Virus record (IMG/VR): IMGVR_UViG_2645727673_000011
Span: 1 to 34,391 of that record
Length of the DNA: 34,391 bases
Reading direction: 5' to 3' (one strand)
Origin: a virus
Taxonomy: Duplodnaviria; Heunggongvirae; Uroviricota; Caudoviricetes
The translations under genes and the position numbers were made by a program. Each line of letters starts with the position of its first letter. Position 1 is the first letter of the stretch. Below the pieces are notes generated by a model. That model worked only from the letters and a program-made list of their open reading frames with translations. It did not search any database and had not been told where the DNA came from. Positions 9,401 through 34,391 of this stretch are shown here, one piece after another.

Positions 9401-10338
9401 TTTATGTTGAAATAGGTAATTTCGCCACGGGTGTAAATATCCAGTGGGATTATACCAGTATTGGTGATATTGAAGCATCGGAGGGCATGGGGGCGCTGAA
9501 ACTCTTCCTTTCGCGAGCGTTTAATCCTAACGGCAATATTCTCCCTGGCATTATTGGTGAGGCTAAAAAGTATGTCAGCGAAGAAGAACTTGAGCATCTT
9601 GACCAACTACTTAAGCGATTCTCATATAACCCGCAGACACGCTGGCAAATGAATCAGCGAAGTATGGGTTCGGTCCACGAGAAAGTGTTATCTGCCATGA
9701 ACAGTGCGATCGCAAACTCATCCGTATCTGAAGAAAAAGCTCTTGAGTGGGCCGACTCTTTTATCACGGAAGAAGTGGAAGAAGCCCGCGCTGGACAGAA
9801 TGGTGGGATAGACCTGCGCAAGGAACTTGCTGATATTTATCGCCTGACCGGCGGTAAAATTTCGACCTTATCAAAGGTGGTTCACCACCAGGGAAGGGCA
9901 TATGCAAATCTTAATGGTGTTGTTGCTGTCAATTTGAACGATGAAAATGCAAGTGCACTGTGGCACGAGCTGGGTCATCATCTTGAGTACAGTAACCCTG
10001 GTTTGTTAGAGAAAGCCCGGTCATTCCTGAAGGCCAATGTTGAAGGGGATAAGCCATCTTTCGTTAATATCGGTGGGCGTGGCAAGCCTGAATGGTGCTT
10101 CAGATCTCGATTGAGTAATATTTATATGGCGAAGGTATACCCGCCAGCCTCAGTAAGTAACACCGGGAAAATTCGGCAGAAATCACCGACTATTTCCAAA
10201 ACGTCAGCAACGGAAGTATTCTCTATGGCTCTTCAGTTGTATCATGACAAAGAGGCCGCTGCCGCATCACTGATGAATGGTGACGGATTGCTGGAACTGT
10301 TATTAGGTGTGGCAAAGGAGCTAAATAATGCGGATTAA
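6403..10338 (+). CDS. S: Tail fibre protein S: P1/Mu-like constant N-terminal part joined to a divergent C-terminal part
   Basis: ATG at 6403 (MNDVTVVTSVTYPSPESLALVADVQYHEPYL...) with AAGGA upstream; this is in frame with the longer track ORF that starts inside R. Contains the TGTPTAPTAAQGTNSTQIANTAFV motif twice and five copies of a ~40-aa fibre repeat (ATKLQTARTIGGVSFDGSANI). Ends NNAD* at 10338. Confidence 0.85.
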   Translation: MNDVTVVTSVTYPSPESLALVADVQYHEPYLSAALNRKFRGIVDPGFYAGFFPKPGGGMNLLITSVDGDKTAGAASVNIGEFYQVTIQQRKDISLALSAGKKYAIVLKGRYLLGEDSYQVNTASHIHAAEFVARTYTDSYQLGDGELLVCTVNIPAGVSAITKEMIDVSDRIDLTIGIEISDSVTSTRSDVAASSLAVKKAYDLAKSKYTAQDASTTQKGLVQLSSATNSDSETMAATPKAVKSVKELADTKAPIESPSLTGTPTAPTAAQGTNSTQIANTAFVKAAITALINGAPGTLDTLKEIAAAINNDPNFSTTINNALALKAPLASPALTGIPTAPTAAQGTNNTQIATTAYVRAAISALVGSSPEALDTLNELAAALGNDPNFATTMTNALAGKQPLDATLTALAGLATGANKLPYFTGTDTVSQTDLTSVGRDILAKTSTLAVIQYLGLREIGTSGEKIPLLSTANTWSSQQTFKGKTAFSAAATFSAGIAGAIEPEAIDGRTIDLNDLIIANTEAGSVKYYQCKTVAGGANITNKPDGVSGNFLVRVESIRKTTGSDYANMQTLINSDTKRIYVRFVVNGNWTAWSQVVVSGWGQDVSVKSLSAVALSGSLTGNASTATKLQTARTIGGVSFDGSANIDLPGVNKAGNQSTTGNAATATKLQTVRTIGGVSFDGSANIDLPGVNKAGNQSTTGNAATATKLQTARTINGVKFDGSANISIPTITSRGRVTALTDTTQGAATGLQMYEAYNNSYPTAYGNVLHMKGASAAGEGELLIGWSGTSGAHAPVFIRSRRDHTDAAWSAWAQVYTSRDSIPGVNATGNQNTTGNAATATKLQTARTIGGVSFDGTANINLPGVNVAGNQNTSGNAATATKLQTARTINGVSFDGSKNIELTPRSIGTINSTTMSFSGGAGWFKLATVTMPQASSVVYISLIGSSGYNVNSPMQAGISELVLRAGNGNPKGLTGALWRRTSVGFTNFAWVNTSGDTYDVYVEIGNFATGVNIQWDYTSIGDIEASEGMGALKLFLSRAFNPNGNILPGIIGEAKKYVSEEELEHLDQLLKRFSYNPQTRWQMNQRSMGSVHEKVLSAMNSAIANSSVSEEKALEWADSFITEEVEEARAGQNGGIDLRKELADIYRLTGGKISTLSKVVHHQGRAYANLNGVVAVNLNDENASALWHELGHHLEYSNPGLLEKARSFLKANVEGDKPSFVNIGGRGKPEWCFRSRLSNIYMAKVYPPASVSNTGKIRQKSPTISKTSATEVFSMALQLYHDKEAAAASLMNGDGLLELLLGVAKELNNAD
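7751..7776 (+). other. cix/gix/hix-like DNA-invertase crossover site at the constant/variable junction of S
   Basis: ttatccaataccttggtttaagagaa; its reverse complement TTCTCTTAAACCAAGGTATTGGATAA matches the Hin hixL site TTCTTGAAAACCAAGGTTTTTGATAA (recalled from memory) at 21 of 26 positions. It encodes the VIQYLGLRE junction. Confidence 0.5.
8281..8520 (+). repeat. Two tandem copies of a 120-bp in-frame repeat inside S (about 95% identical); a third diverged copy follows at 8521 and two more at about 8890-9120
   Basis: Direct comparison of 8281-8400 with 8401-8520 shows about 6 mismatches in 120 bp. Each unit encodes a 40-aa repeat ending TGNAATATK. Confidence 0.85.
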
Positions 10339-10642
10339 AATCGCAGCGCCATTAGGCGGAGATGCCATTATCGAATTTGATGATAATGAAGAAGTTTCCG
10401 GGCGTTTAAGCATTATCTCCGGTGACATTACCGAGGACATGATCGCTGAAGCCATAGCAGGGGCAAATCCCAATAGCTATATGGGATTCGTTAACACCCT
10501 TGATGCTCCCGCAAGTGATGTTCTCCGAACGCTGCATCTTTACGCTGGCTGGTTTGTTGATTGGCCAGCAGTAGATGGTGGCGATGATGACGACGACGAC
10601 GACGATGATTTTGGTGATCATGTAGACCAGATCGTATATTAA
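10328..10642 (+). CDS. Small highly acidic protein with a poly-Asp tract, translationally coupled to the tail-fibre gene
   Basis: ATG at 10328 lies 9 nt after AAGGAG (10313-10318) and overlaps the last codons of S. The 104-aa product has about 24 acidic residues and a run of nine Asp. Confidence 0.6.
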   Translation: MRIKIAAPLGGDAIIEFDDNEEVSGRLSIISGDITEDMIAEAIAGANPNSYMGFVNTLDAPASDVLRTLHLYAGWFVDWPAVDGGDDDDDDDDDFGDHVDQIVY

Positions 10643-10707
10643 CTCCCTGATTGTGCACAAATAATCTGTTCTGATATGTTAATTGTGTACTTAAAGTAAA
10701 CGCGTAG

Positions 10708-10746
10708 TGGCTTGCTTTAGGTTATGGAAGCAAGCCATTTCCTATT
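10708..10746. terminator. Hairpin between the convergent tail-fibre operon (+) and the 201-aa gene (-); likely bidirectional terminator
   Basis: tggcttgctt (10708-10717) pairs with aagcaagcca (10728-10737) as a 10-bp stem with a 10-nt loop, followed by tttcctatt. Confidence 0.5.
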
Positions 10747-10754
10747 AAAGTAGA

Positions 10755-11360
10755 TCAAAAAACTTTAATTTTGGCGTTTCGCTCACCACATATTGAGCAC
10801 TTTAGCCGATTTTTTAAGTCTTCCAGAGTCAATCCTGAAGCTACATATTGTTTAATGTCTCTTTGAGAGAGTATCACTGGTTCACGGAACCTATAACCGC
10901 CGCAGAGATGTATTATCATTATCTCAGAATCATTTTCTAACCAGTCATTAAGAGTGTTGTGTGGTTTAGAAAGTCGCTCAATATCCAAACGCCATTGTTG
11001 GATTTCATTACTGTCCCAGTCGAGATTTAGTTTAGCACGTTGGGCAACGAACCGATGTTTTCCTCTGTTAATACTAGGTTCGTAGTCTTTTCGTTGATCG
11101 GTAGTAAGGTCCTCTTCGTATAGAAATGAATCATCGTTTTTATGAGTGGGTTCAAAAATTACTTCAATAAAACTTGGCTCATACGCGTTAAAGCTTTTTT
11201 TTCTTATGAATATCCCTTGTGTACCACTCCCGTTTAAATCAGCACAAAAATTAACATCTATTCCTCGACGAAGTGCGAAAAAATAGCTATGTTCCCTCAT
11301 GGCCACAGCTAATTTGGCTATATCTATAAGGTTGTGTATTTTATCAGAATATGTATTCAT
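10755..11360 (-). CDS. Hypothetical protein encoded by an AT-rich, probably horizontally acquired gene
   Basis: 201 aa from the ATG at 11360 (MNTYSDKIHNL...) preceded by GGAAG; the track start at 11375 is TTG. Local GC is about 33% by hand count of 10801-10860. I recognise no domain. Confidence 0.6.
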   Translation of the reverse strand: MNTYSDKIHNLIDIAKLAVAMREHSYFFALRRGIDVNFCADLNGSGTQGIFIRKKSFNAYEPSFIEVIFEPTHKNDDSFLYEEDLTTDQRKDYEPSINRGKHRFVAQRAKLNLDWDSNEIQQWRLDIERLSKPHNTLNDWLENDSEIMIIHLCGGYRFREPVILSQRDIKQYVASGLTLEDLKNRLKCSICGERNAKIKVF

Positions 11361-11541
11361 GAGGCTTCCAAGCAAATATCATGACAAGCATAAAGTGTTA
11401 AAGTAATGTTACGCATCTTAACAAAGTGACTCTTGATTAATTTTAATTCGCCCTATCTTGCTTGTCTAACCATCATTGCATATACAGAGGGCAAAGAATT
11501 ACACTTCATGTAATTTATTTCCCTTTAATTTCGTATTATCA

Positions 11542-11568
11542 GGGTGCTCTCTGGCACCCCTTTTTATT
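11542..11568 (+). terminator. Intrinsic terminator-like hairpin with a T tract on the plus strand
   Basis: gggtgc-tctctg-gcaccc followed by cTTTTTaTT. It lies just past the stop of the 264-aa minus-strand gene and would stop plus-strand read-through. Confidence 0.5.
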
Positions 11569-11578
11569 CTAGTAAAAA

Positions 11579-12373
11579 TTAATCACTTTCCACCTCTTCC
11601 GTGGTGTTTTCTTGCAGCTCTGCCAATGCAGTACGACACAGGTTCCTAGCATTGGCTATAGCCACACTTTTGACTTCATCCGTCATCGTGCAGGTAATGT
11701 ACTGATCGAGTTCTTCAGCGCGGATGATGCTTTTGCCAATCAGAAACTGTATTTGCCAGAGCAGATCGGCATCCATCATCAGAATTTCTGCCGAGCCTTC
11801 AGGGCCAGCCGGGAAGGAAACATAAGACTGTTTGCCCATGCCGATAACTCGACAACTTGCTTCAAGAATTGCGCGCTTGAGGTCTGACTTTGTAACGGAA
11901 ACAGGTTGGTTTTCACCAGTGATTATGCCGTTGACATGGAAGTGGAAGGGCATGTAGCTTGAAATACGCTCTACTTTCCACACGCCAGCAAGCGATCCTT
12001 CATGCAGCACAATGGGGGTAACCGCGAGTTTCATCTCACCATATAACTGCTGGCAGATAGCTGGATTGCTGAATACATCCAAAGGTTCACACTCAAACAG
12101 CGGCGCAATCTGTATGAGGTCCATCATGGTCATACCAGGGGTACGAGCAGTAATGAATCTGCGCATGCCAGTATCCATTGTGCGCCAGATAGCTACACCA
12201 TGCTTTTTGCTCACTTCTTCAGTAAAGCCAAGGTGGCACATGATGGTTTTTTCGATAGCCAGATCAGAGATCGAAACCTTTTCGCCAGGTACACCATCAT
12301 TATTGATGGTCACTTCTACACTCTGGCCATTACGCAGGCGGTATTGAATGGTTTTAGTATTTTGTGCTGTCAT
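11579..12373 (-). CDS. Hypothetical protein, 264 aa, acidic C-terminus
   Basis: ATG at 12373; backbone-like GC; no recognisable motif. Sits where the darA/lyd/cin block lies in P1 as I recall it. Confidence 0.6.
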   Translation of the reverse strand: MTAQNTKTIQYRLRNGQSVEVTINNDGVPGEKVSISDLAIEKTIMCHLGFTEEVSKKHGVAIWRTMDTGMRRFITARTPGMTMMDLIQIAPLFECEPLDVFSNPAICQQLYGEMKLAVTPIVLHEGSLAGVWKVERISSYMPFHFHVNGIITGENQPVSVTKSDLKRAILEASCRVIGMGKQSYVSFPAGPEGSAEILMMDADLLWQIQFLIGKSIIRAEELDQYITCTMTDEVKSVAIANARNLCRTALAELQENTTEEVESD

Positions 12374-16879: not shown

Positions 16880-19800
16880 ATGAACAAGCTATATATGCGG
16901 GTGTTTCGCTGTTCAAGTGTCAGCGAAATATTGAAATACATTAGGGCAATAACATCTCACCGAGCGCCGATTAAATACGGCGTGGAAAAGGTGGAAGGCA
17001 AAAGCTATGACCGACTGCGCCGGGAGGCGAATCAGAAGGCGATAGATTTGCTTAATTCGCTGGTGGACGGCGCGACACTGACAGATGAACAGCGCCAGAT
17101 CCTGGCTGGGTACACCGGTGAAGGCGGCATTGGCGGGTCCGTCTCCGAATATTACACACCAAAGCCGATCGCTGAAGGTGTCTGGGAGATCATGAAGCTC
17201 TACGGCGCGGACGTAGGTAACACTCTGGAACCATCGGCGGGAACCGGCGTTTTTAATGAGACAAAACCGGTTGGTACGGTGATGACCGCGACTGAGATCA
17301 GCAGTGTTTCCGGTCGTATAAACCAGTTGTTACACCCGGAAGACAGCGTACAGATTTCCCCGTTCGAACAGCTGGCTATAAGCACGCCTAACGATTCATT
17401 CGACCATGTTGTGGGTAACGTTCCGTTCGGCGGTCGTGATAACACACGCAACATCGATAAGCCTTACGCAGAAGAAACGGACATGGGTTCTTACTTCATG
17501 CTCCGCATGCTGGACAAGATAAAGCCAGGCGGATTCATGTGCGTGATTGTGCCGCCGTCCATTGTTTCAGGTTCAAACATGAAGCGGTTACGCCTGCGCT
17601 TATCCCGTAAAGCTGAATTTCTTGGCGCTCACCGCTTGCCTACCGGTACTTTTGACGCAAACGGGACCAGTACAGTCGTTGATGTGGTGCTGATGCGCAA
17701 ACATCCGGCGGAGATGGCTGAGAAAATCCCCCTGGTGGATGAAGGTACTCTTGAATCGGCAAATGTGCTTTGGCCAACGTTTATTTCTGGCAAGTGGTTT
17801 GAAAAGGACGGCCGCCGGTTTGTTCATGGCACTCAGGAGAAGGGATTCCAGGGGCGTATTGAGGTTCGTGCCGACGGGCAGATTGATAACCAGGCTCTTA
17901 AAGCGAAGCTGATTCATCGTTTCGAAAGTCGTATCGACTGGTCTTTGCTCGATATGGCTGAACCGTCACCGACCGCAGATGTTGTTGATGAAGGGGAAAT
18001 GCGCCTGATTAATGGCGTATGGCAAAAATATGCTGGTGGTCGCTGGATTGAAGCTGATGCCGGGAAGGAGCTGAAGATTGATGTTGCCAGTTATGGCGCG
18101 GATAGCTGGGAGGCTCTTCAGCGTAACCTGACTACCACAGAAGGTCGTCTCGGCATGACATTTACCCAGATGGCAAATGTCCGCGATAAGTACACCACAT
18201 CAATCAGCGACGATATGGTGCAGTTGGTGGACTGGATTAACAGCCAACCTGAAAAATACCGTGAACGCTTGTATCGCGGAGCGATGATTGGCCGGATGTT
18301 AATTGAATATCAGGACATGAAGGCCGCCGGGCATAGTGCTGAACAAATCGAACAGCAGCGCCTTTCTCTGGTATCCCGTTTGCAGGCAGAGATTGACCGT
18401 TTTGGTAACCCCGGTCGCGGTCCGATAGCGAAATTATCGGGGAGCGGTGCGCGCGCCTGGTTTGCTTTCCGTGGTGCAATTAAGCTGGATGGCACTATTT
18501 CTGACGAGCTGACAGGAAAGCTGGTTACGCATGATTCCAGCGCCAGTTATGACTCCACCAGCTATCAGGACACCCTGCGTTATCTCTATAGCGATCTTAC
18601 CCGCGATCCAATCCAGCTCGATGATTTCCGCCTTGCGTTTACCGGCGAACTGCCAGCCAGTGATGAAGAGTTGCTTAATTTATTGGCCAGCACCCCTGGT
18701 ATTGCGGTTTCACCGTATGGCGGGATTGTTCCGTTCGCCCGCGCCACCAGCGGCGACATTAACGAGATAGTGGCTCCAAAACAGGAATTCCTTGCCACAC
18801 TCCCCGACGGTCCAGTAAAAAACAACGTCCTTAATCAGCTGGCAGCGATCGAAGAGAAGCGCATCAAGACGCCAGCAGAGAATATCCGCTTTAAGCTCAA
18901 TAGCCGTTGGTTCGACCGCTCCGTCATTCTGGAGTTTTTGCAGGAAAACGGCTATCCGGATCTGCGCTATGTGCAGTCAGTGCAGCTGGAAGGCGACGAA
19001 ATGGTTTCTGACACCTATCACGGTGGTGATGGTCTGTTCGTCGGGCACCGATACGGTGTCGTCCAGCGCAAGGATAAAGAAACAGGCGAGATCCGCTACG
19101 AGTGGGACCGTAAATCAGGTGAAAACGCGACCGGGTTCCCGGCACAGCTGGAAAAGTATCTCAATGGTGCGCGTATCGGTGGCAAAGATAGCGCGACGGC
19201 GAACGGCTACCGCGAGCAGATGGCACTGCTTGAGGACCAGTTCAATAAGTGGATCAAGACGCACGATCGCTACGATGAGCTGGTTGCCAAATACAACGAT
19301 GTGTTCAATAGCAATATCCCGTATGAACACTCTGGCGATCCGCTTGGGTTGAAGGGATTAAGCGGTAAGCGCCAGCCATTTGATTACCAGAATAGCGAGG
19401 TGCGCCGACTGTCCGAAGATGGGCGCGGCATCCTGGGCTTTGGCACCGGGCTGGGTAAAACCACGACCGCGCTGGCGCTTGAGGCGTTCAACTATGAGAA
19501 CGGTCGCTCTACCCGTACTGCGTATGTAGTGCCTAAATCAGTGCTGGAAAATTGGTATTACGAAACAAAAGAATTCCTGAGTGAAGAGGCATTCAGTAAC
19601 TACCTGTTCGTCGGTCTTGATGTGCTGATGGATGGCGATCAGATTCGCCAGGTGCCGGTGCTCGATGAGAACGGTAAACCTGTTCTTGGTACTGATGGCA
19701 CTCCAGTTATGCGCGATGCTCTTAAGCTGGCAGATGAAGCCACTATCACGGCGCGGATGAACGCGATCCCGCACTCAAATTACCGTGCAGTCGTGTTTAC

Positions 19801-22800
19801 CAAAGAACAATACGCCCGCATTCCGCTACGTGATGACACCATAGATGAGCATGCACAGGATATGCTTTATGACTTCGTTGCCGCCGGGCGCGTAGCCAGT
19901 GCAATGGATTCCGACTCCCACCGCAAAGAGGCCGCGCGTCGCCGGGTATTGTCGGAGTATTCAGATACCGGTACCGAAAAAGCAGAGAAGTATCCGTACT
20001 TTGAGGATATGGGCTTCGACAGCGTGATTGCTGACGAAGGCCACAACTACCGCAATTGCTATAAAAATGGTCGCGAAGCGTCACAACTGGCCTATCTGCC
20101 CACCAGCGCGGTGGCGCAATCGGCGCGAGATATGGCAATTAAAAACGCGTACCTGATGAAAAAGAATGGCGGGCGCGGGCCGGTTCTCCTGACTGCAACG
20201 CCAGTCGTTAACACCCCGATCGATGCATACAACATGCTTTCTCATGTTCTGCCGAAGGAATACTGGCAGAACATGGGGATCTACGGTCCTGATGACTTCG
20301 TTAAATTCTTCGGCAAGACCAGGCTGGAAACGGTACAGAAAATCAGCGGTGAAGTTGAAGAAAAAATGGCGCTGGTGGGCTTTGAAAACCTTGATGCGCT
20401 GCGCGGTATATTCCATCGCTGGGTAACGCTTAAAACGGCGGAAGACGTTAAGGATACCGTGGAGATCCCGGAGCTGGACGAACACCAGCAGGATGCACCA
20501 CTTACTGAAGAACAACTGGCGGCGTATGAAGAATTGCGTCAGCAGGCGGAAGCGGCGGCCAAAGCCAACAATGGCGTAACGACCTCGGTCAATGAAGACG
20601 GCGTGATTGAGCACGAGAAAGCCCGTCCGATCTTCTCAATAATCAGGGATATGGACCGCGTATGTACTGACATGGACCTGTACTATCGCCGGATCACCTA
20701 TCGTTTCCTGCCGGAGTACGCCGATGCGGTGCAGCAGCTGGCGGACAGTTTGCCTAAACAAGCCACCAGCGAAGACGACGACAGTGATGATTCAATCACG
20801 CAGCAATCGCAATACTCCCTGATAGATAAGGGCGAGTTTATTCAGTTGCAGGTTCCGGAAGCGTTCGAGCAGGAAGTGAATAAGCGCCTGGCCAGGTTTG
20901 GCATTGACGAACAGACCGTAACTCACCCCGTTACGCCGAAATACGCGAAGCTGATCGCCACGCTGAAGGAGTTTTTCCCGGAAGGTAAGCAAATCATCTT
21001 CACCGATGAAAAAACGAAGCACCAGAAGCTCAAGCGCATTATCTGCAATGCTCTAAACCTTGAACCTTCAAAGGTGGGGATCCTGAATGCTCAGACGGTT
21101 GCCGAGGCAGGTAAAACCGGTAAGAAACTGAAAGCGGTTAAACCGCCGAAAGAGCTACCGGATGAACCAACAGATGCACAGATAGCGAAATACAACGAGC
21201 AAATGGCTCTGTATGACGCCTATATCGCGCAGCAAAATGAAATGTCGTTGGGCGGTCTGGAAAAGATTGCAGCCGACTTCCAGGAGGGCCGGACTCCGAT
21301 CATCATCTGCAACAAAAAGGCAGAGGTGGGTATCAACCTGCATCGAGGAACGACGGATATCCACCACCTGACGTTGCCGTGGACACCAGCCAGTATCGCA
21401 CAGCGTAACGGTCGCGGTGCCCGAGTTGGTTCCAACCGTGCAAGCGTTCGCGTTCACTACTACTGCGGCAAGGGGTCTTTCGATGAATACCGACTGAAGA
21501 CGCTGAAGCGTAAAGCAGGCTGGATCTCCGATATCCTCCGTTCAGATAAGTCAGAAATGGAGAACGCCGATGCCAATGACATGATCGAAATGCAGATGTA
21601 TACCGCGAAGGATGACGGCGAACGTCTGGCAATGATGCAGGTTCAAATGGATAAGGCGAAAGCTGCGAAACGCGCTCGCCAGAAAGAACAGGCTACTATC
21701 GACCTTCAGAACTACATCAAGGCGCAGCACGCAGCTGGCGAGGATGTGGAGGTACTTACCGCTGAATTAGAGCGAAGCAAAGCGGAACTTGAAAAGACCA
21801 CCGTCGAGGTAGCTAAATTCAAACAGGCGGCAATGGCCAAGGCAGCGGATAACGCAGACTGGAAGGCCCGCTGGGGGAGTGTCCATCACACAGACCGTAT
21901 GTTGTTAGCACAGTATCGCGCGTCGTTGAAAAGCGCCATTCAGCGCAAGGCTAATATCTCTCAGGCCATCTCCCGCTATGAGAAATTATTGAACCGTACT
22001 CAGAAGGCCGCGACGGATATCAAACGCCTGCGCCCGCTGATGGAGGATGCAATAAATAAAGGCATTCTGGATATTGATCCTGACATGGTTAACCATGCGA
22101 GTGAGTTCCTTGTTATCGGCGATCGCTCATGGCGTGTAGGCCAATACTACGATTGTGCCGGTGATATCGTTCGCATTAAGTCGCTGGACTTCGACAGCCA
22201 GCGCGCAGACGTGGAGATCATCTTCACCTTCAAAGGCACCAAATCTGGTAATTGGGATGTGAAGACGCTGGATAAACAGGTTGATGTAACTCCTGATGAA
22301 GATGCTGTTATGCAGAAAATCAGTGGTGGCGTCTCCATCGCCGGGATTAACGACATCATTTCCTGTGACGATTTCTACCGTTTCCGGCAGCGCGGCATGA
22401 TCAAAATCACTGACTCATACGGCGTTCAGACTACAGAGTCAGGCTATAGCATTGATTTTGTTGGTACCTATACGGACCCACTGAAGCATGCGGTTTACCC
22501 GGATCGCCGTGACGGCGCGCTGAAGTCGTCAATTGCAAAATGGGTGCTTGGTATGATGTCGGAAGGGAATAACCGCCAGATCCGTTCGGCAGAAACATTC
22601 CTGGTTGAATTGTTTGGCTCCAATTATGGCGATGTAATCGCGTCATACGGAGATACGCTATCCCCTGAAGTAATTCAGGAGAAAATAGCGGATGCGATCG
22701 CAAAAATGCCGGAGAAAACAAGCCAGGGGGCTACTCGTAACGGGGATTCTGAACTTGAGGTCACCAATGCCATTTTCGGTACCCATGAGTTCCGGGCGTC

Positions 22801-23647
22801 AGATTATGAGATCACCACAGCACAGTTTGGCACCATTGGCATTTACAGCAATAAAGCCGAGATCAAGCAGGCAATGGACGCAGCAAGCGCGCGCATCGCA
22901 GCAGAACGGGAAGCCAATCTGAATCATGCAGTCGCCGCACTGACTCAATCGTGGGTAACAGCAATCAGGGAGGCCGCCACCACAGGGAAAATCACACCTG
23001 CAATTGCGGATGTCGTAAACGACGGCTCTAAATTTATGGATGCCTATCAAATGGATGCGGTGCAGTTGCCATCAGCCTATGGCCAATTCAGCTATCGCAT
23101 GACCTACAACCTGGTATCAATGTTTTCCGACCTTGCCATCCTTGGGCTGGTGGATCTTAACGAGGTTACGCCGGAATTGCTCAGCATGCGCAAGAATCAT
23201 GTGGAGATATTGCAGAGAATTAACACGGTTCTTGCCGGGCGCACCGATGAAGAGAAACAGGCCGACGCTGATCGGATAAACCTGGCCCTTGGCAACATCA
23301 CGGAGGAAGAAATTGCCGCCAGAAACGAGAAACAAGAAGAGTTATCATCAATACAGGGTGATGCCACCAGCATAGCTCAGTCTCTTGGTCTGAATTATCG
23401 CGTATCCACCGCCGACCTGAAGATGATGTACGCACCAAAATTCGCCGCTGGCGAGGTATTTGGGCTTCAGGAAGCCTCAGGCATGAAAGGCGTTCTTTTC
23501 CGTGCGAAAGACGCAATCAAGGCGAAATTCGGCGCTCGCTGGCTGCCAGCGAAGGCGAAGAACAGCGATTTCCCGGGTAACTGGTGGATTATCGAGACAA
23601 AACACAACGTGGCGGACGTTCTGGCCGTCATCCAACAATACGCATAA
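16880..23647 (+). CDS. darB: DarB antirestriction protein: N-terminal N6-adenine methyltransferase-like domain plus DExH helicase domain
   Basis: 2255 aa, the length I recall for P1 DarB. Methyltransferase-like motif HVVGNVPFGG; helicase Walker A GFGTGLGKTT and motif II IADEGHNYRN. Confidence 0.9.
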   Translation: MNKLYMRVFRCSSVSEILKYIRAITSHRAPIKYGVEKVEGKSYDRLRREANQKAIDLLNSLVDGATLTDEQRQILAGYTGEGGIGGSVSEYYTPKPIAEGVWEIMKLYGADVGNTLEPSAGTGVFNETKPVGTVMTATEISSVSGRINQLLHPEDSVQISPFEQLAISTPNDSFDHVVGNVPFGGRDNTRNIDKPYAEETDMGSYFMLRMLDKIKPGGFMCVIVPPSIVSGSNMKRLRLRLSRKAEFLGAHRLPTGTFDANGTSTVVDVVLMRKHPAEMAEKIPLVDEGTLESANVLWPTFISGKWFEKDGRRFVHGTQEKGFQGRIEVRADGQIDNQALKAKLIHRFESRIDWSLLDMAEPSPTADVVDEGEMRLINGVWQKYAGGRWIEADAGKELKIDVASYGADSWEALQRNLTTTEGRLGMTFTQMANVRDKYTTSISDDMVQLVDWINSQPEKYRERLYRGAMIGRMLIEYQDMKAAGHSAEQIEQQRLSLVSRLQAEIDRFGNPGRGPIAKLSGSGARAWFAFRGAIKLDGTISDELTGKLVTHDSSASYDSTSYQDTLRYLYSDLTRDPIQLDDFRLAFTGELPASDEELLNLLASTPGIAVSPYGGIVPFARATSGDINEIVAPKQEFLATLPDGPVKNNVLNQLAAIEEKRIKTPAENIRFKLNSRWFDRSVILEFLQENGYPDLRYVQSVQLEGDEMVSDTYHGGDGLFVGHRYGVVQRKDKETGEIRYEWDRKSGENATGFPAQLEKYLNGARIGGKDSATANGYREQMALLEDQFNKWIKTHDRYDELVAKYNDVFNSNIPYEHSGDPLGLKGLSGKRQPFDYQNSEVRRLSEDGRGILGFGTGLGKTTTALALEAFNYENGRSTRTAYVVPKSVLENWYYETKEFLSEEAFSNYLFVGLDVLMDGDQIRQVPVLDENGKPVLGTDGTPVMRDALKLADEATITARMNAIPHSNYRAVVFTKEQYARIPLRDDTIDEHAQDMLYDFVAAGRVASAMDSDSHRKEAARRRVLSEYSDTGTEKAEKYPYFEDMGFDSVIADEGHNYRNCYKNGREASQLAYLPTSAVAQSARDMAIKNAYLMKKNGGRGPVLLTATPVVNTPIDAYNMLSHVLPKEYWQNMGIYGPDDFVKFFGKTRLETVQKISGEVEEKMALVGFENLDALRGIFHRWVTLKTAEDVKDTVEIPELDEHQQDAPLTEEQLAAYEELRQQAEAAAKANNGVTTSVNEDGVIEHEKARPIFSIIRDMDRVCTDMDLYYRRITYRFLPEYADAVQQLADSLPKQATSEDDDSDDSITQQSQYSLIDKGEFIQLQVPEAFEQEVNKRLARFGIDEQTVTHPVTPKYAKLIATLKEFFPEGKQIIFTDEKTKHQKLKRIICNALNLEPSKVGILNAQTVAEAGKTGKKLKAVKPPKELPDEPTDAQIAKYNEQMALYDAYIAQQNEMSLGGLEKIAADFQEGRTPIIICNKKAEVGINLHRGTTDIHHLTLPWTPASIAQRNGRGARVGSNRASVRVHYYCGKGSFDEYRLKTLKRKAGWISDILRSDKSEMENADANDMIEMQMYTAKDDGERLAMMQVQMDKAKAAKRARQKEQATIDLQNYIKAQHAAGEDVEVLTAELERSKAELEKTTVEVAKFKQAAMAKAADNADWKARWGSVHHTDRMLLAQYRASLKSAIQRKANISQAISRYEKLLNRTQKAATDIKRLRPLMEDAINKGILDIDPDMVNHASEFLVIGDRSWRVGQYYDCAGDIVRIKSLDFDSQRADVEIIFTFKGTKSGNWDVKTLDKQVDVTPDEDAVMQKISGGVSIAGINDIISCDDFYRFRQRGMIKITDSYGVQTTESGYSIDFVGTYTDPLKHAVYPDRRDGALKSSIAKWVLGMMSEGNNRQIRSAETFLVELFGSNYGDVIASYGDTLSPEVIQEKIADAIAKMPEKTSQGATRNGDSELEVTNAIFGTHEFRASDYEITTAQFGTIGIYSNKAEIKQAMDAASARIAAEREANLNHAVAALTQSWVTAIREAATTGKITPAIADVVNDGSKFMDAYQMDAVQLPSAYGQFSYRMTYNLVSMFSDLAILGLVDLNEVTPELLSMRKNHVEILQRINTVLAGRTDEEKQADADRINLALGNITEEEIAARNEKQEELSSIQGDATSIAQSLGLNYRVSTADLKMMYAPKFAAGEVFGLQEASGMKGVLFRAKDAIKAKFGARWLPAKAKNSDFPGNWWIIETKHNVADVLAVIQQYA

Positions 23648-30286: not shown

Positions 30287-30847
30287 TTAGTGCATGATGT
30301 TTGCCATCTCATAGGCGTCAGCCAGCAACTCCATCTCTGACTTGTTCAGCAAGGTGAATTCTTTCTTGCCTCCAACCACACCATCGGCATGAACAGGGAC
30401 CAGCCAGGGGTATTTTTCTCTTACTTCAGCCGGTGCTGCATGCTGGTGGTGCCATCTACAAAGTGGCAATTGCTTTTTGTGACAACCAGGCGCGGTACGA
30501 CCGGAGATATGGTGCAGAGACACCTCTTCAGATATTACTCCATGCATATAGCAGGCAATGCAGGGGAGAGCGCCAAGAGCATTGGCTATGCGCCGCTCCT
30601 CCGCCGTCGGTGTTCGTCCCTTCAAGCCACGAGATTTTATTTTTACCGCGCTTTTCCGCGTTTTGCTGGCTGGTGGGCGCTCTTTCTGTTTAGCGATACG
30701 GCGGTCGATAGTATTCCGCATTTTCTGATATTGAGATTCTCGCCAGGCCGGATCAGCCAACTTCTCCCGTTGCCGAGCGATCGCTCGTTCTCTGGCTGCC
30801 TTCTGCCACTTACGGTGCTGTTCAATTTTTTGTTCGATTGTTTTCAT
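30287..30847 (-). CDS. ref: Ref recombination enhancement function (HNH-type endonuclease)
   Basis: 186 aa from the ATG at 30847 (MKTIEQKIEQHRKWQKAARERA ... EMANIMH), which I recognise as P1 Ref. Cys/His-rich HNH region CIACYMHG ... CRWHHQH. Confidence 0.85.
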   Translation of the reverse strand: MKTIEQKIEQHRKWQKAARERAIARQREKLADPAWRESQYQKMRNTIDRRIAKQKERPPASKTRKSAVKIKSRGLKGRTPTAEERRIANALGALPCIACYMHGVISEEVSLHHISGRTAPGCHKKQLPLCRWHHQHAAPAEVREKYPWLVPVHADGVVGGKKEFTLLNKSEMELLADAYEMANIMH

Positions 30848-30955
30848 ATGGCAAAAAAAAGGCGGCCTGATGGCCGCCAATGATGTCAAGGAGTTAAGTA
30901 ATGGCAACGTCTTCGTAGTTGACAAAAACTGCGGCTCAATTATAGCAACCAATTA

Positions 30956-30993
30956 GGGGTCGTCTCAGAAAACGGAAAATAAAGCACGCTAAG
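30956..30993. repeat. 38-bp terminal inverted repeat of a Tn21-subgroup Tn3-family transposon (tnpA-proximal end)
   Basis: GGGGTCGTCTCAGAAAACGGAAAATAAAGCACGCTAAG; the tnpA stop codon lies inside it, as is usual for Tn3-family elements. Confidence 0.8.
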
Positions 30994-33955
30994 CCGGTTG
31001 CAGAGGCCGTAGCGGCCTGAACTTCCCCGCGCCGATCTTGGCGCTGCTGCGCCATAGGTAATCACCGGTCAGGTTGATGTGCTCCCAGCCGAGTGGCGAC
31101 AGGTACTGCAATAGCGAGTCATCGACGGCATGACCATTGCCGCGCAACGCATGCGCCGCACGCTCCAGGTAGACCGTGTTCCACAGCACGATGGCCGCCG
31201 TCACCAGGTTGAGGCCGCTGGCCCGGTAGCGCTGCTGCTCGAAACTGCGGTCACGGATTTCACCAAGGCGGTTGAAGAACACGGCACGGGCCAGCGCATT
31301 GCGCGCCTCGCCCTTGTTCAGCCCGGCATGCACGCGGCGGCGTAGCTCGACGCTTTGCAGCCAGTCGAGGATGAACAGCGTGCGCTCGATGCGGCCCAAC
31401 TCGCGCAGCGCGACGGCCAAGCCGTTCTGGCGCGGGTAGCTGCCGAGTTTCCTGAGCATCAGCGAGGCCGTCACCGTGCCCTGCTTGATCGAGGTGGCCA
31501 GCCGCAGGATTTCGTCCCAATGGGCGCGGACGTGCTTGATGTTGAGCGTGCCGCCGATCATCGGCTTGAGCGCGTCATAGGCGGCATCGCCCTTCGGGAT
31601 GTAGAGCTTGGTGTCGCCCAGGTCGCGGATGCGCGGCGCGAAGCGGAAGCCCAAGAGGTGCATCAGGGCGAAGACGTGATCGGTGAAGCCCGCCGTGTCG
31701 GTGTAGTGCTCCTCGATCCGCAGGTCGGATTCGTGGTACAGCAGGCCGTCGAGCACGTAGGTTGAGTCGCGCAGGCCGACATTGACCACCTTGGTGTGGA
31801 ATGGCGCGTATTGGTCGGAGATGTGGGTGTAGAAAGTCCGTCCTGGGCTGCTGCCATATTTTGGGTTGATGTGCCCCGTGCTCTTTGCCTTGCTAGCGGT
31901 TCGGAAATTCTGTCCGTCCGATGATGATGTGGTGCCATCGCCCCAGTGCCCGGCAAAGGGATGCCGAAACTGAGCGTTGACCAGTTCAGCCAACGCTGTC
32001 GAGTACGTTTCGTCGCGGGTATGCCAGGCTTGCAGCCAAGCGAGCTTCGCGTAGGTCGTGCCGGGGCAGGACTCGGCCATCTTGGTCAGGCCCAGGTTGA
32101 TCGCGTCGGCCAGGATCGTGGTCAACAACAGGTTCTTGTCCTTGGCCAGATCGCCCGATTTCAAGTGCGTGAAGTGCCGGGTGAAGCCCGTCCACTCATC
32201 GACTTCGAGCAGCAGTTCGGTGATCTTGACGTGCGGCAGGACCATGGCTGTCTGGTCTATCAGCGCCTGCGCGGTGTCGGGCACCGCCGCATCCAGCGGC
32301 GTGATCTTCAAGCCCGACTCGGTGATGATGGCATCCGGCAGGTCGTTGGCTGCCGCCATGCGGTTGACGGTGGCAAGTTGTGCTTCCAGCAGCGTCAGCC
32401 GCTCATGCAGATATTGTTCGCAGTCGGTGGCCACGGCCAGCGGCAATTCGCTGGACTGCTTGAGGCTGGTGAACTTCTCGGGCGGTACCAGGTAGTCCTC
32501 GAAGTCCTTGAACTGGCGTGAACCCTGCACCCAGATGTCGCCCGAGCGCAGGGAGTTCTTCAACTCGGACAGCGCGCACAGTTCGTAGTAGCGCCGGTCG
32601 ATGCCGGCGTCGGTCATCACCAGTTTCTGCCAGCGCGGCTTGATGAAGCCGGTCGGTGCATCGGCTGGCAGCTTGCGGGCGTTGTCGGTGTTCATGCCGC
32701 GCAGCACCTCAATGGCATCAAGCACGTTTTTGGCGGCGGGCGCGGCCCGCAGCTTGAGCACGGCAAGGAATTCCGGTGCATAGCGGCGCAGGGTGGCGTA
32801 GCTCTCGCCGATGCGATGCAGGAAATCGAAGTCATCGGGTTGCGCGAGCTTCTGCGCCTCGGTGACGCTCTCGGCAAAGGAATCCCAGGACATGACGGCC
32901 TCGATGGCGGCAAACGCATCGCGGCCTGATTGCTTGGCGTCGATCAGCGCCTGACCGATGCGCCCGTACAGACGTACCTTGGCGTTGATGGCCTTGCCTG
33001 ACGCCTGGAACTGCTGCTGATGCTTATTCTTGGCAGCGTTAAACAGCTTACCCAGGATGCGGTCGTGCAGGTCGATGATTTCGTCGGTGACGGTGGCCAT
33101 GCCCTCGGTGGCCAGCGCCACGAGAGTGGCGTAGCGCCGTTGCGGCTCGAATTTGGCCAGGTCGGCGGGTGTCATCTGGCCGCCCTCGCGGGCAATCTTG
33201 AGCAGGCGGTTCTGGTGAACCAGCCGCTCGATGCCGGTAGGCAGATCGAGTGCCTGCCATGCCTTGAGGCGTTCGATGTGTTCCAGCATATGCCGCGAAT
33301 TTGGCTTGGCCGGAGACTGGCGCAACCAAGCCAACCAGGTCGTCTTGCCGTTGTCCCGGCGCTTGAGCAGATCGTCGAGGCGGCGGCGATGCGCGTCCGC
33401 CAGTGGTTCGGCCAAGGCGTCGTAGATGCGCCGGTTAGCACGGGTGATCGCCTCGGCACTCGCCCGCTCGACGGCGTTGAGGGCGGGCAGAATGACCGAC
33501 TGCCGCCGCAGGTGCCCGATCAAGGCGCTGGCCAGCACGATGCCTTTGTCGGTTTGCATCGCCAGCTCGGTCAGCATCTGGACGGCCTGCCGGTAATGGC
33601 TCATGGTGAAGGGCCGGAAACCGAACACGGTTTGCAGCTCGCTCAGGTGCTCGCGCCGGGTCTGCTCCCGCTGGCCGTACTCGTTCCAGCTTTCGACGCC
33701 GACCTTGAGCTGGTCGGCGACCAGCTTCAACAAGGGCGGGAACGGTAGTTCATCGACGCCCAGGATGACGCCGGGAAAGCGCAGGTAACAGAGCTGCACC
33801 GCGAAGCCCAGCCGATTGGCTGGCCCGCGCCGCTGTCGGATGATCGAGAGGTCGGTATCGTTGAATGTGTAATGTCGGATCAGGTCGTCCTTGGAGTCCG
33901 GCAACGCCAGCAGGCTTTCCCGCTCGGCGGCGGACAGGATGGAACGACGTGGCAT
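30989..33955 (-). CDS. tnpA: Tn3-family transposase TnpA
   Basis: 988-aa ORF ([31 protein letters not shown]...), typical of Tn21/Tn1721-type transposases. Coordinates taken from the ORF track. Confidence 0.9.
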
Positions 33956-33957
33956 AT

Positions 33958-34391
33958 TTACTGATCCGTTCTCAAGTATTGATACAGGGTTTCGCGACTG
34001 ATTCCGAATTCACGAGCAAGCTTGGTCTTTTGCTCGCCAGCCTCGACACGTTGGCGCAGTTCGGCAATACGCTCAGACGACAGGGATTTCTTCCTGCCAC
34101 GGTAAGCCCCGCGTTGCTTGGCGAGCGCAATACCCTCGCGCTGACGCTCGCGGATCAGGGCGCGCTCGAACTCGGCGAACGCGCCCATCACCGAGAGCAT
34201 CAGGTTCGCCATCGGAGAGTCTTCGCCAGTAAAACTGAGGTGTTCCTTGACGAATTCGATATGCACGCCGCGTTGTGTCAGCGTTTGCACGATCCGGCGC
34301 AAATCATCGAGATTGCGCGCCAGGCGATCCATGCTATGCACCACCACGGTGTCGCCGGTGCGGGCGAAGCTTATCAGCGCTTCCAGTGGCA
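33958..34391 (-). CDS. tnpR: Serine recombinase/resolvase TnpR, 3' part; N-terminus lies beyond the window end
   Basis: C-terminal resolvase sequence with a helix-turn-helix ([38 protein letters not shown]). The reading frame stays open to the last base of the window. Confidence 0.85.

Follow-up and report, generated by a model that had tools for sequence, protein, structure and literature searches.

The open reading frame (ORF) at positions 10,328-10,642 of the window, the 34,391-nt stretch of viral DNA that was analysed as a whole, is by sequence comparison the ortholog of phage P1 gene hxr (P1_gp021, YP_006490.1), an already catalogued gene whose small, very acidic product may well act in the phage-producing cell as a partner (inhibitor or chaperone) of the peptidase domain of DdrB. 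The P1 Dar system is the classic case of antirestriction proteins carried in the phage head, and two of the proteins concerned, DarA and Hdf, were the subject of a cryo-EM study in 2026 (PMC12810830). If the proposed role is correct, polyvalent-protein peptidases would gain in Hxr their first described regulatory partner, and a 20-year-old annotation of the gene product as a 'repressor' would be corrected.

Identification of the hxr gene

Direct reading and translation of the plus strand give an ATG start and 104 amino acids followed by a stop codon (~11 kDa), and the conservation of this ORF marks it as a genuine gene rather than a chance reading frame. Nineteen phage records match it at 95-99% DNA identity, with identities of 95.6% to P1 and 98% to phage JL22, and an intact hxr is present in all 80 P1-like contigs, which were picked without regard to hxr. 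The protein matches PHROG 2292 along its full length (residues 1-104 against profile positions 1-105 of 105; E=1.9e-60), is 96% identical to an 848-member E. coli cluster (P0001), and is encoded directly after ddrB sequence, in keeping with the native order of the darA antirestriction operon (lydA lydB hdf darA ddrA ddrB hxr). The original prediction, made from the window without homology searches, had suggested, among other roles, a new kind of fibre chaperone; the small, very acidic protein itself is real, but homology identifies it as the known P1 Hxr, which had been overlooked. Both hxr and ddrB are non-essential for plating (PMC10695390).

Other features of the original prediction are borne out by the sequence. 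The Shine-Dalgarno motif, described as strong and ideally spaced, is found 7 nt 5' of the hxr ATG, and this upstream context is identical across 59 P1-like copies, the sole variable base lying in hxr codon 2. The start codon does overlap an upstream stop codon by 11 nt as described, but that stop codon belongs to ddrB and not to the tail-fibre gene S to which it had been assigned. Because of this overlap with the ddrB stop, native hxr is presumably translated by coupling with DdrB. The estimate of roughly 20 net negative charges agrees with the computed value of -21, which follows from the 20 Asp and 5 Glu residues of the protein set against one Lys and three Arg (coordinates of all features are given in Table 1).

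Table 1. Positions of the promoter, gene, protein and repeat features in and around hxr in the window.
Feature	Positions	Strand	Description
P1 late promoter LPs	5908..5926	+	Upstream of R; -22 box AAGTTACTT, -10 TACAAT
5' part of tail-fibre gene S	6403..9459	+	Fused in frame to ddrB, giving a 1311-aa chimera
Deletion junction	9450..9460	+	11-bp microhomology TTATACCAGTA common to S and ddrB; the two pDETEC1 blastn alignments overlap here
ddrB remnant	9460..10338	+	Approximately codons 703-995 (~293 codons); C-terminal zincin metallopeptidase domain
Shine-Dalgarno AAGGAG	10315..10320	+	Within the 3' end of ddrB
hxr start/ddrB stop overlap	10328..10338	+	11 nt; TAA at 10336-10338; arrangement of translational coupling
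hxr CDS	10328..10642	+	P1 ortholog; last gene of the darA operon
Hxr folded core	10328..10573	+	Residues 1-82; strand-strand-strand-helix-helix-strand predicted with AlphaFold2
Acidic C-terminal tail, predicted disordered	10574..10639	+	Residues 83-104; net -12, no Lys/Arg
(GAY)9 tract	10583..10609	+	GAT GAT (GAC)5 GAT GAT; length-polymorphic trinucleotide repeat
Terminator-like element	10706..10739	+	13-bp stem-loop followed by UUUCCUAUU; between convergent hxr and isaB

Linkage of Hxr to the DdrB peptidase domain

The comparative evidence that favours the proposed role is the conserved pairing of hxr with one particular domain. In all 31 divergent IMG/VR contigs, an acidic Hxr-family ORF of 96-109 aa lies directly 3' of a DdrB-type gene ending in a zincin domain, and its start overlaps the upstream stop in 24 of them (offset -1 to -17); the called start in the remaining seven lies 59 nt upstream, is uncertain and probably represents an extension. 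The intact hxr of each of the 80 close contigs begins at the conserved Shine-Dalgarno-ATG within ~30 nt of the ddrB stop, and the same arrangement is found in genomes of Serratia, Rosenbergiella, Pantoea, Chimaeribacter and Citrobacter. Profile-profile comparison indicates that even the most distant of these ORFs are homologous to Hxr (95% probability, E=2.9e-8), and the genes located 3' of the pair vary by lineage. The pairing is kept where the upstream protein is short (527-566 aa), as in L235, whose 527-aa upstream protein has no Pfam family listed, and in L070 (of the pair L070/L154), the one short protein tested, which has no match to the ddrB-ParB Pfam family. Co-occurrence and coupling are therefore strict with respect to the zincin peptidase domain and independent of the N-terminal architecture. 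Two matches in which the peptidase domain is not C-terminal have neither an acidic ORF starting at the end of the domain nor an ORF matching the Hxr profile. For the peptidase domain itself, a sequence search of the PDB was empty and Pfam returned only a sub-threshold LPD5 match.

The charges of the two proteins also appear to vary together. Where the spacer of the peptidase domain that separates the HEXXH motif from the STEVFS helix is 75 aa long and has a net charge of +6 to +12, the Hxr tail lacks Lys and Arg (net -9 to -12), and lineages with short, neutral spacers have Hxr tails of mixed charge, a co-variation that is confounded by phylogeny because essentially two clades are involved. 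Taken as a whole, the P1 peptidase domain is nearly neutral (net -1 to -3), which speaks against the proposed partnership.

One possible, though doubtful, explanation of this pairing is that Hxr assists in the assembly or targeting of Dar cargo, for example by escorting DdrB or neutralising its DNA-binding ParB-like domain until entry into the procapsid, with no part in peptidase regulation. Membership of the operon and coupling to ddrB would suit such a factor, as would the statement in the virion-proteome table that DdrB aids the addition of DarB to the capsid, and the acidic tail could conceivably mask a DNA-binding surface. However, short upstream proteins are paired as well, including the one with no ddrB-ParB match, and P1 DdrB is itself acidic over its first 700 residues (net -21), which would make this part a poor electrostatic partner for Hxr.

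The reading preferred here is that Hxr would bind the C-terminal zincin metallopeptidase domain of DdrB inside the phage-producing cell as the cognate regulator of that domain, most likely as an inhibitor or a holding chaperone. Acting like an immunity protein for a toxin domain, Hxr would control the trimming of DdrB to ~76 kDa (~700 aa) that takes place before packaging (PMC5512222), would dock its acidic tail on the peptidase domain's basic insert, and would stay outside the capsid along with the cleaved-off domain. A partner or inhibitor of the HEXXH domain was among the roles suggested in the original prediction, and the comparative evidence (an Hxr-family ORF beside zincin-terminated genes) favours it, while the physical binding, and inhibition in preference to activation, are what we infer from that evidence. 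Adjacency of the genes would be just as compatible with a substrate, with an activator, or with a factor that assembles another Dar protein. The strict pairing of hxr with the peptidase domain leads to a concrete and cheaply testable hypothesis with a bearing on the agent and the timing of DdrB cleavage.

The published P1 virion proteome (27 proteins) includes DdrB, DdrA, DarA, Hdf, DarB and Ulx, and Hxr is not among the proteins detected. This absence is weak evidence, because proteins were accepted in that study from two unique peptides upwards, and Hxr gives, on inspection of its sequence, only one convenient tryptic peptide.

Fold and acidic tail of Hxr

Modelling with AlphaFold2 from five near-identical sequences gave a pLDDT of 37 and became usable with the addition of relatives of 36-48% identity recovered by an exhaustive HMMER search. 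In the model built from the resulting 26-sequence alignment, Hxr is predicted to consist of a small alpha/beta core (pLDDT 70-91 in 10-residue blocks over residues 1-80) and a disordered acidic tail of ~22 residues (pLDDT below 50 for residues 91-104). Members of the family are 95-109 aa long, share 36-48% identity and keep the core motifs (G32, G53, V65-L66-R67, W75 and W79-P80 in the family alignment), and every one of the 26 has an acidic tail of 20-25 residues with a net charge of -7 to -13. Hxr has no Pfam, NCBIfam or structural match, and a sequence-profile search of the PDB returned nothing below E=0.37. More tentatively than the partnership itself, Hxr might be proposed as the founder of a previously unrecognised family of dedicated trans-acting regulators, whether inhibitors or holding chaperones, whose target would be the zincin peptidase responsible for processing the polyvalent proteins injected from the virion, a family with no detectable fold relatives, in which the acidic tail would fill the basic insert or the active-site cleft until DdrB docks in the procapsid.

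The composition of Hxr invites comparison with DNA-mimic antirestriction or anti-defence proteins such as Ocr and ArdA, in which negative charge imitating DNA titrates type I restriction enzymes or other DNA-binding defence proteins. This role, also raised in the original prediction, is in our view improbable. A net charge of -21 in 104 aa, an acidic character kept throughout the family, and the location of hxr in the P1 defence-against-restriction operon would all be expected of a mimic. However, the promoter annotated for the operon in P1, LPdar, is a late one, so that Hxr would have to be packaged to act at infection, and it does not appear among the 27 virion proteins whereas six Dar proteins do. 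More than half of the charge resides in the disordered tail and not on a rigid surface shaped like DNA, the model matches no known DNA mimic (neither a DNA-like array of carboxylates nor similarity to solved mimics was found), and mimicry would not account for why hxr is so strictly linked to the peptidase domain.

Far less probable still is the function given in GenBank ('possible repressor; homolog of Xre'), that of an Xre-type transcriptional repressor, which might also be a substrate of the adjacent metallopeptidase as ImmR is of ImmA. Zinc peptidases are known to occur paired with Xre repressors (ImmA/ImmR, IrrE/DdrO), and in the P1 record a stretch of ~58 residues is noted as 28% identical to an Xre repressor. 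Nevertheless, none of the 26 family members matches any Pfam helix-turn-helix (HTH) family at E<=1, the HTH_3 family included; the NCBIfam and PDB profile searches described above gave no support; the confidently modelled region comprises four strands and two helices instead of the all-alpha, five-helix Xre fold; and a protein with a net charge of -21 is implausible as a DNA binder. Because no HTH and no Pfam, NCBIfam or structural match was found, the 'Xre-like repressor' label, which has been propagated to many plasmid and phage records, is unsupported and apparently wrong.

The run of nine Asp noticed in the original prediction is uninterrupted at residues 86-94, and the (GAY)9 tract encoding it lies ~5 nt from the location first given (10588-10614). 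The tract had been suspected of being prone to slippage, and its length does differ between isolates, with alleles encoding 6-10 acidic residues among the 80 contigs, always in frame, and with 2-5 copies of GAC in the alleles examined at the DNA level. Nine Asp is a rare allele, present in 1 of the 80 contigs. The length of the tail probably drifts through slippage of GAC units; a role of the tract in phase variation was rejected because the tract repeats in units of 3 nt and every one of the 80 copies, sampled without bias, is in frame.

Two resemblances of the tail were considered and set aside. The tail of the window protein terminates in the hydrophobic residues IVY, and most lineages end in IVN, which could mimic a DdrB cleavage product since P1 DdrB has IVN at 699-701, about where the 76-kDa fragment would end; however, IVN is not kept at the aligned position in other DdrBs and P1 Hxr itself ends in IVY, and the match is probably a coincidence. 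Mimicry of the acidic tail of SSB (DDDIPF) amounts to a general resemblance, with nothing further in its favour.

The chimeric gene upstream of hxr

The gene upstream of hxr, which had been read as S, a tail fibre carrying a HEXXH domain, is a deletion chimera and not a native fibre, as its two halves demonstrate in blastn comparisons. Positions 4736-9460 of the window match the S region of plasmid pDETEC1 with 100% identity, and positions 9450-11436 are 99.85% identical to the 3' end of ddrB together with hxr and isaB in the same plasmid, where the two stretches are separated by 8,289 bp. The ddrB remnant matches positions 704-995 of PHROG 2299 (E=2.1e-171) and aligns by blastn with P1 as well as pDETEC1, and the HEXXH motif (HELGH, 9964-9978) belongs to ddrB, the C-terminal domain of which has been assigned as a zincin metallopeptidase (PMC5512222). 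No record spanning the junction was found in the phage, plasmid and complete E. coli genome collections. The S'::'ddrB fusion, missed in the original prediction, arose by a microhomology-mediated deletion of 8.3 kb that took out the fibre tip, tfa, the lysis genes, hdf, darA, ddrA and the first ~702 codons of ddrB, leaving hxr behind the chimera. Because the C-terminal tip and the tfa gene are gone, the fused fibre is very probably non-functional, and the apparent 'tail fibre with a metalloprotease domain' is an artefact of the deletion, in a P1-like plasmid prophage that is decaying, and no new fibre architecture.

The sole annotated late promoter remaining upstream of hxr in this deletion derivative is LPs, which differs from P1 LPs by one mismatch in the spacer and presumably drives both hxr and the chimera in the window. 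The stem-loop of the terminator-like element has a predicted RNA folding energy of -19.6 kcal/mol (z=-2.9), and a consensus terminator scan made no call at that position.

Expression with S as a new kind of fibre chaperone or fibre-associated factor, the leading idea of the original prediction, can be given almost no weight: within the window alone hxr does stand directly behind an ORF that starts as S and downstream of LPs, but this adjacency was made by the 8,289-bp deletion, unseen in the three collections searched, and in P1, JL22, pDETEC1 and all divergent relatives hxr follows ddrB, kilobases from S and U, with lysis and dar genes in between and a separate tfa gene retained after S. The accompanying remark that the protein does not resemble the U/Tfa chaperones was correct, as Hxr has no match to their domain (Caudo_TAP).

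Comparison with known systems

P1 Hxr and its orthologs in P7, RCS47, SJ46, JL22 and P1-like plasmids are the same gene as that in the window (95-98% DNA identity); the position after ddrB, the AAGGAG-N7-ATG and the overlap of 11 nt between the start and the stop of ddrB are all shared. The window copy differs from these relatives in encoding Arg2 instead of Gln2 and in lying behind the S'::'ddrB chimera with the native promoter LPdar lost, and it has nine Asp where P1 Hxr has D-E-D5.

Ocr (T7 gp0.3) and ArdA are, like Hxr, small, strongly acidic proteins encoded by phages or plasmids in an antirestriction context, but Hxr is expressed late rather than early, is undetected in virions, carries its charge in a disordered tail and has no similarity to them in fold. 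The ImmA/ImmR and IrrE/DdrO pairs likewise place a zincin peptidase domain beside a small protein labelled 'Xre-like'; unlike ImmR and DdrO, however, Hxr has no HTH by sequence or model, and hxr is located downstream of, and coupled to, the gene of a polyvalent virion protein, whereas those pairs form part of a regulatory module.

The proposed inhibitor role resembles that of immunity proteins and cognate inhibitors (e.g., the partners of Tox-MPTase domains in polymorphic toxin systems), which are also small and acidic, are encoded directly after a C-terminal enzymatic domain with an overlap of stop and start codons, and are co-inherited with that domain whatever the N-terminus. No Imm family resembles Hxr in sequence or in fold. 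The two systems would also differ in the target of the enzyme, since the DdrB peptidase is thought to process its own polyprotein (PMC5512222), whereas toxin domains kill a rival cell.

Identity of the acidic ORF

By sequence comparison, the acidic ORF is the known phage P1 gene hxr, a real protein-coding gene already catalogued from P1 with no function assigned. At the DNA level it is 95-99% identical to 19 phage records, where the aligned segment falls under genes annotated hxr and ddrB, and its product aligns over its full length with PHROG 2292 ("unknown function"; E=1.9e-60). In P1 (NC_005856), the gene series lydB-hdf-darA-ddrA-ddrB-hxr ends in hxr (P1_gp021), which overlaps the ddrB stop exactly as in the window, and the same layout is found in phage JL22 and plasmid pDETEC1. 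The original prediction described the ORF correctly in physical terms (e.g., a strong AAGGAG, an overlap with the upstream stop, measured here as 11 nt, and nine consecutive Asp, placed here at residues 86-94), and the claimed charge of about -20 agrees with a count of 25 acidic and 4 basic residues (net -21). The GAY tract is also present, although about 5 nt to the left of the claimed 10588-10614.

Features of the hxr region and of the remainder of the window
Feature	Position	Strand	Details
Late promoter LPs	5908-5926		P1 element, intact
Chimeric ORF	6316-10338	+	1340 aa; 1311 aa if counted from the ATG of S (6403); starts as tail-fibre protein S
Shine-Dalgarno AAGGAG	10315-10320	+	7 nt before the hxr ATG
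hxr ORF	10328-10642	+	ATG start, 104 residues (direct reading and translation)
Upstream ORF stop TAA	10336-10338	+	hxr ATG 11 nt inside the upstream ORF
Asp tract GAT GAT (GAC)5 GAT GAT	10583-10609	+	Encodes Hxr residues 86-94
Stem-loop	10706-10739		13-bp perfect stem, -19.6 kcal/mol, z=-2.9
Stretch without IS1	11375-11579		
darB	16880-23647		
RecA-dependent nuclease gene	30287-30952		P1 gene ref
Tn3-family transposase and resolvase	30989-34347	-	Transposase 988 aa (DDE_Tnp_Tn3, E=1e-158); resolvase runs off the window end

Origin of the fibre context

The last ~293 residues of the upstream chimera match DdrB family PHROG 2299 (profile positions 704-995) and hold the C-terminal zincin domain with its HEXXH motif (HELGH in the window). 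Window positions 4736-9460 align with the pDETEC1 S region at 100% identity, and positions 9450-11436 align at 99.85% with the part of that plasmid holding the 3' end of ddrB, hxr and isaB; 11 bp (TTATACCAGTA, window 9450-9460) are common to both alignments, which stand 8,289 bp apart in the plasmid. Absent from the window relative to pDETEC1 are the S C-terminus, a tfa remnant, a recombinase remnant, three holin/lysis genes (lydC/A/B), hdf, darA, ddrA, and ddrB codons 1 to ~702. A junction-spanning probe found no match at a coverage of at least 80% in 50,697 phage records, 72,556 plasmids and 5,426 complete E. coli genomes. On these alignments, the in-frame fusion S'::'ddrB seems to have arisen by a microhomology-mediated deletion private to this decaying P1-like plasmid prophage, and the tail-fibre neighbourhood, originally taken as native to the ORF, is an artefact of that deletion. 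The prophage can probably no longer produce infectious particles; darB is still present, and the proteins needed for packaging DarB are gone. An independent deletion in plasmid pCAVP819_2 (NZ_JBSTNM010000003.1, locus 5001-7462) starts ~7 bp further along S than the window breakpoint and joins S to an internal part of darA, with the loss of ddrA, ddrB and hxr; together, the two deletions suggest recurrent decay of the S-dar region among P1-like plasmids. Since LPs is intact and the native promoter of the darA operon, LPdar, falls inside the deleted stretch, co-expression of hxr with the fibre gene in the window is plausible but accidental.

Several other features were observed. Within S (window ~8250-9200), a ~40-aa repeat, NQ[ST]T[ST]GNAATATKLQTARTI.GV.FDGSANI.LPGVN, occurs about five times, with about 90% DNA identity between copies. 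The stem-loop between the convergent hxr and isaB, a likely bidirectional terminator, was not called by a consensus terminator scan. P1 carries IS1 between isaB and isaA, whereas the window has none there, and the P1 alignment jumps across the IS1 coordinates. The Tn3-family insertion adjoins ref, the RecA-dependent nuclease gene of P1.

The Hxr family and its predicted fold

A word-indexed search returned only near-identical Hxr proteins; more distant relatives were found by searching 1.84 billion representatives exhaustively with HMMER, followed by profile searches. These relatives (95-109 aa, 36-48% identity) occur on contigs of ~80-97 kb from Klebsiella, Enterobacter, Citrobacter, Cronobacter, Hafnia, Salmonella and Pantoea, and all are annotated "hypothetical" without a Pfam domain. 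The family shares a conserved core (G32, G53, V65-L66-R67 and a "GW.V.WP" motif, among others) and tails of 20-25 residues with a net charge of -7 to -13, mostly ending in [IV]VN and homopolymeric only in the P1 group. Some P1-like contigs carry a tandem-duplicated Hxr after ddrB (184-187 aa, two core-plus-tail modules; comparison locus L236, 6001-6555, and proteins P0014 and P0059). Residues 699-701 of P1 DdrB (locus L001), near the expected end of the reported 76-kDa form, read IVN, as do the ends of most non-P1 Hxr tails; the aligned position of other DdrB homologs shows no conservation of the motif, and its occurrence in both proteins is probably a coincidence.

The P1 record labels Hxr a "possible repressor; homolog of Xre", from 28% identity over ~58 residues. 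None of 26 family members matched an HTH family (Pfam, E<=1), Hxr had no NCBIfam match, and a PDB sequence-profile search gave a best E of 0.37. The AlphaFold2 model (26-sequence alignment; 10-residue block pLDDT 70-91 across residues 1-80) has predicted strands at 2-6, 12-16, 28-32 and 76-77, helices at 36-43 and 62-71, and a disordered tail (pLDDT <50, residues 91-104), and as modelled is not an Xre fold. A role as a transcriptional repressor is essentially excluded, and the current annotation as an "Xre-like repressor" should be withdrawn. Foldseek comparisons of the model (best E=1.2 against PDB and 0.25 against BFVD) matched no known DNA-mimic, chaperone or inhibitor fold.

Variation of the Asp tract

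Eighty P1-like contigs were picked via the peptidase domain, a choice that carries no bias for hxr. All of them have an intact ORF, and the acidic run comprises six (10 contigs), seven (38), eight (24), nine (1) or ten (2) residues, with a variant tail in five. GAC copy number is the main difference between alleles (2-5 units in those read at the DNA level) and has changed on more than one background of flanking sequence: the tract does slip, as originally predicted. Outside it, polymorphism affects only 29 of the first 85 codons (39 distinct sequences). The nine-Asp allele is rare; the window shares it with pDETEC1 and a single IMG/VR contig. With a repeat unit of one codon, slippage changes the tail by only a residue or two; an on/off switch was rejected given this codon-sized repeat and the uniformly intact ORF.

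Pairing with the DdrB peptidase domain

In three divergent contigs, an hxr relative lies directly 3' of a ~1000-aa ddrB homolog with an overlap of 11-14 nt, and the genes further downstream vary. A second contig set was chosen by searching with the DdrB C-terminal peptidase domain itself. An acidic 96-109-aa ORF (net -9 to -19) directly follows the peptidase gene in all 31 divergent IMG/VR contigs; its start overlaps the peptidase-gene stop in 24 (offset -1 to -17) and is called 59 nt upstream in the other seven, probably reflecting an N-terminal extension. The same gene order is found in Serratia, Rosenbergiella, Pantoea, Chimaeribacter and Citrobacter genomes, and the most distant paired ORFs are Hxr homologues by profile-profile comparison (95% probability, E=2.9e-8). 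The pairing is kept with upstream proteins of only 527-566 aa (no ddrB-ParB Pfam match in the Pantoea representative; no Pfam family listed for the 527-aa Salmonella gene). In two matches, a longer protein carries the peptidase domain internally; there, no acidic ORF starts at the domain end, and the Hxr profile matched none of the ORFs of either locus. Since the pairing is kept with short upstream proteins and missing with an internal domain, Hxr tracks the peptidase domain and not the remainder of DdrB.

Likely function

The passages on DdrB in PMC5512222 give a ParB-like domain at the N-terminus and a zincin peptidase at the C-terminus (per Iyer and colleagues), report cutting to ~76 kDa (~700 aa) before packaging, with self-cleavage proposed, and mention no partner protein. 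The P1 virion proteome lists 27 proteins, each with at least two unique peptides, including DdrB, DdrA, DarA, Hdf, DarB and Ulx; at that threshold Hxr is absent from both text and supplement. Both hxr and ddrB are non-essential in a CRISPRi screen (PMC10695390), and the six Dar proteins listed in a 2026 DarA/Hdf structure paper do not include Hxr (PMC12810830).

There is about an even chance that Hxr is a producer-cell partner of the DdrB peptidase domain, either an inhibitor or a holding chaperone. Such a role, in which Hxr would control the timing of DdrB cleavage, would fit four observations: translational coupling to the 3' end of ddrB, inheritance together with the peptidase domain, late expression (in P1, LPdar is annotated as a late promoter upstream of the operon) and apparent exclusion from the virion. 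The original suggestion of a partner or inhibitor of the HEXXH domain survives on this consistent comparative pattern, from which we infer binding and the direction of the effect. Hxr tails lack Lys and Arg in lineages whose HEXXH motif and STEVFS helix are separated by a spacer of 75 aa with net charge +6 to +12, and are of mixed charge in lineages with short, neutral spacers; this pattern, from about two clades, is a weak hint of the partnership, and the peptidase domain as a whole is near-neutral.

Action in Dar cargo assembly, not through the peptidase, is an unlikely alternative. A DNA-mimic antirestriction protein, also raised originally, is more doubtful still, as the Hxr model matches no known DNA-mimic fold. 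The proposed tail-fibre chaperone is essentially excluded, having drawn on the artefactual fibre context. As a hypothesis, the partnership between Hxr and the DdrB peptidase is cheap to test and addresses a small gap in P1 Dar biology; it does not amount to a new kind of system. In its logic, Hxr would resemble an immunity protein whose gene follows that of a toxin domain.
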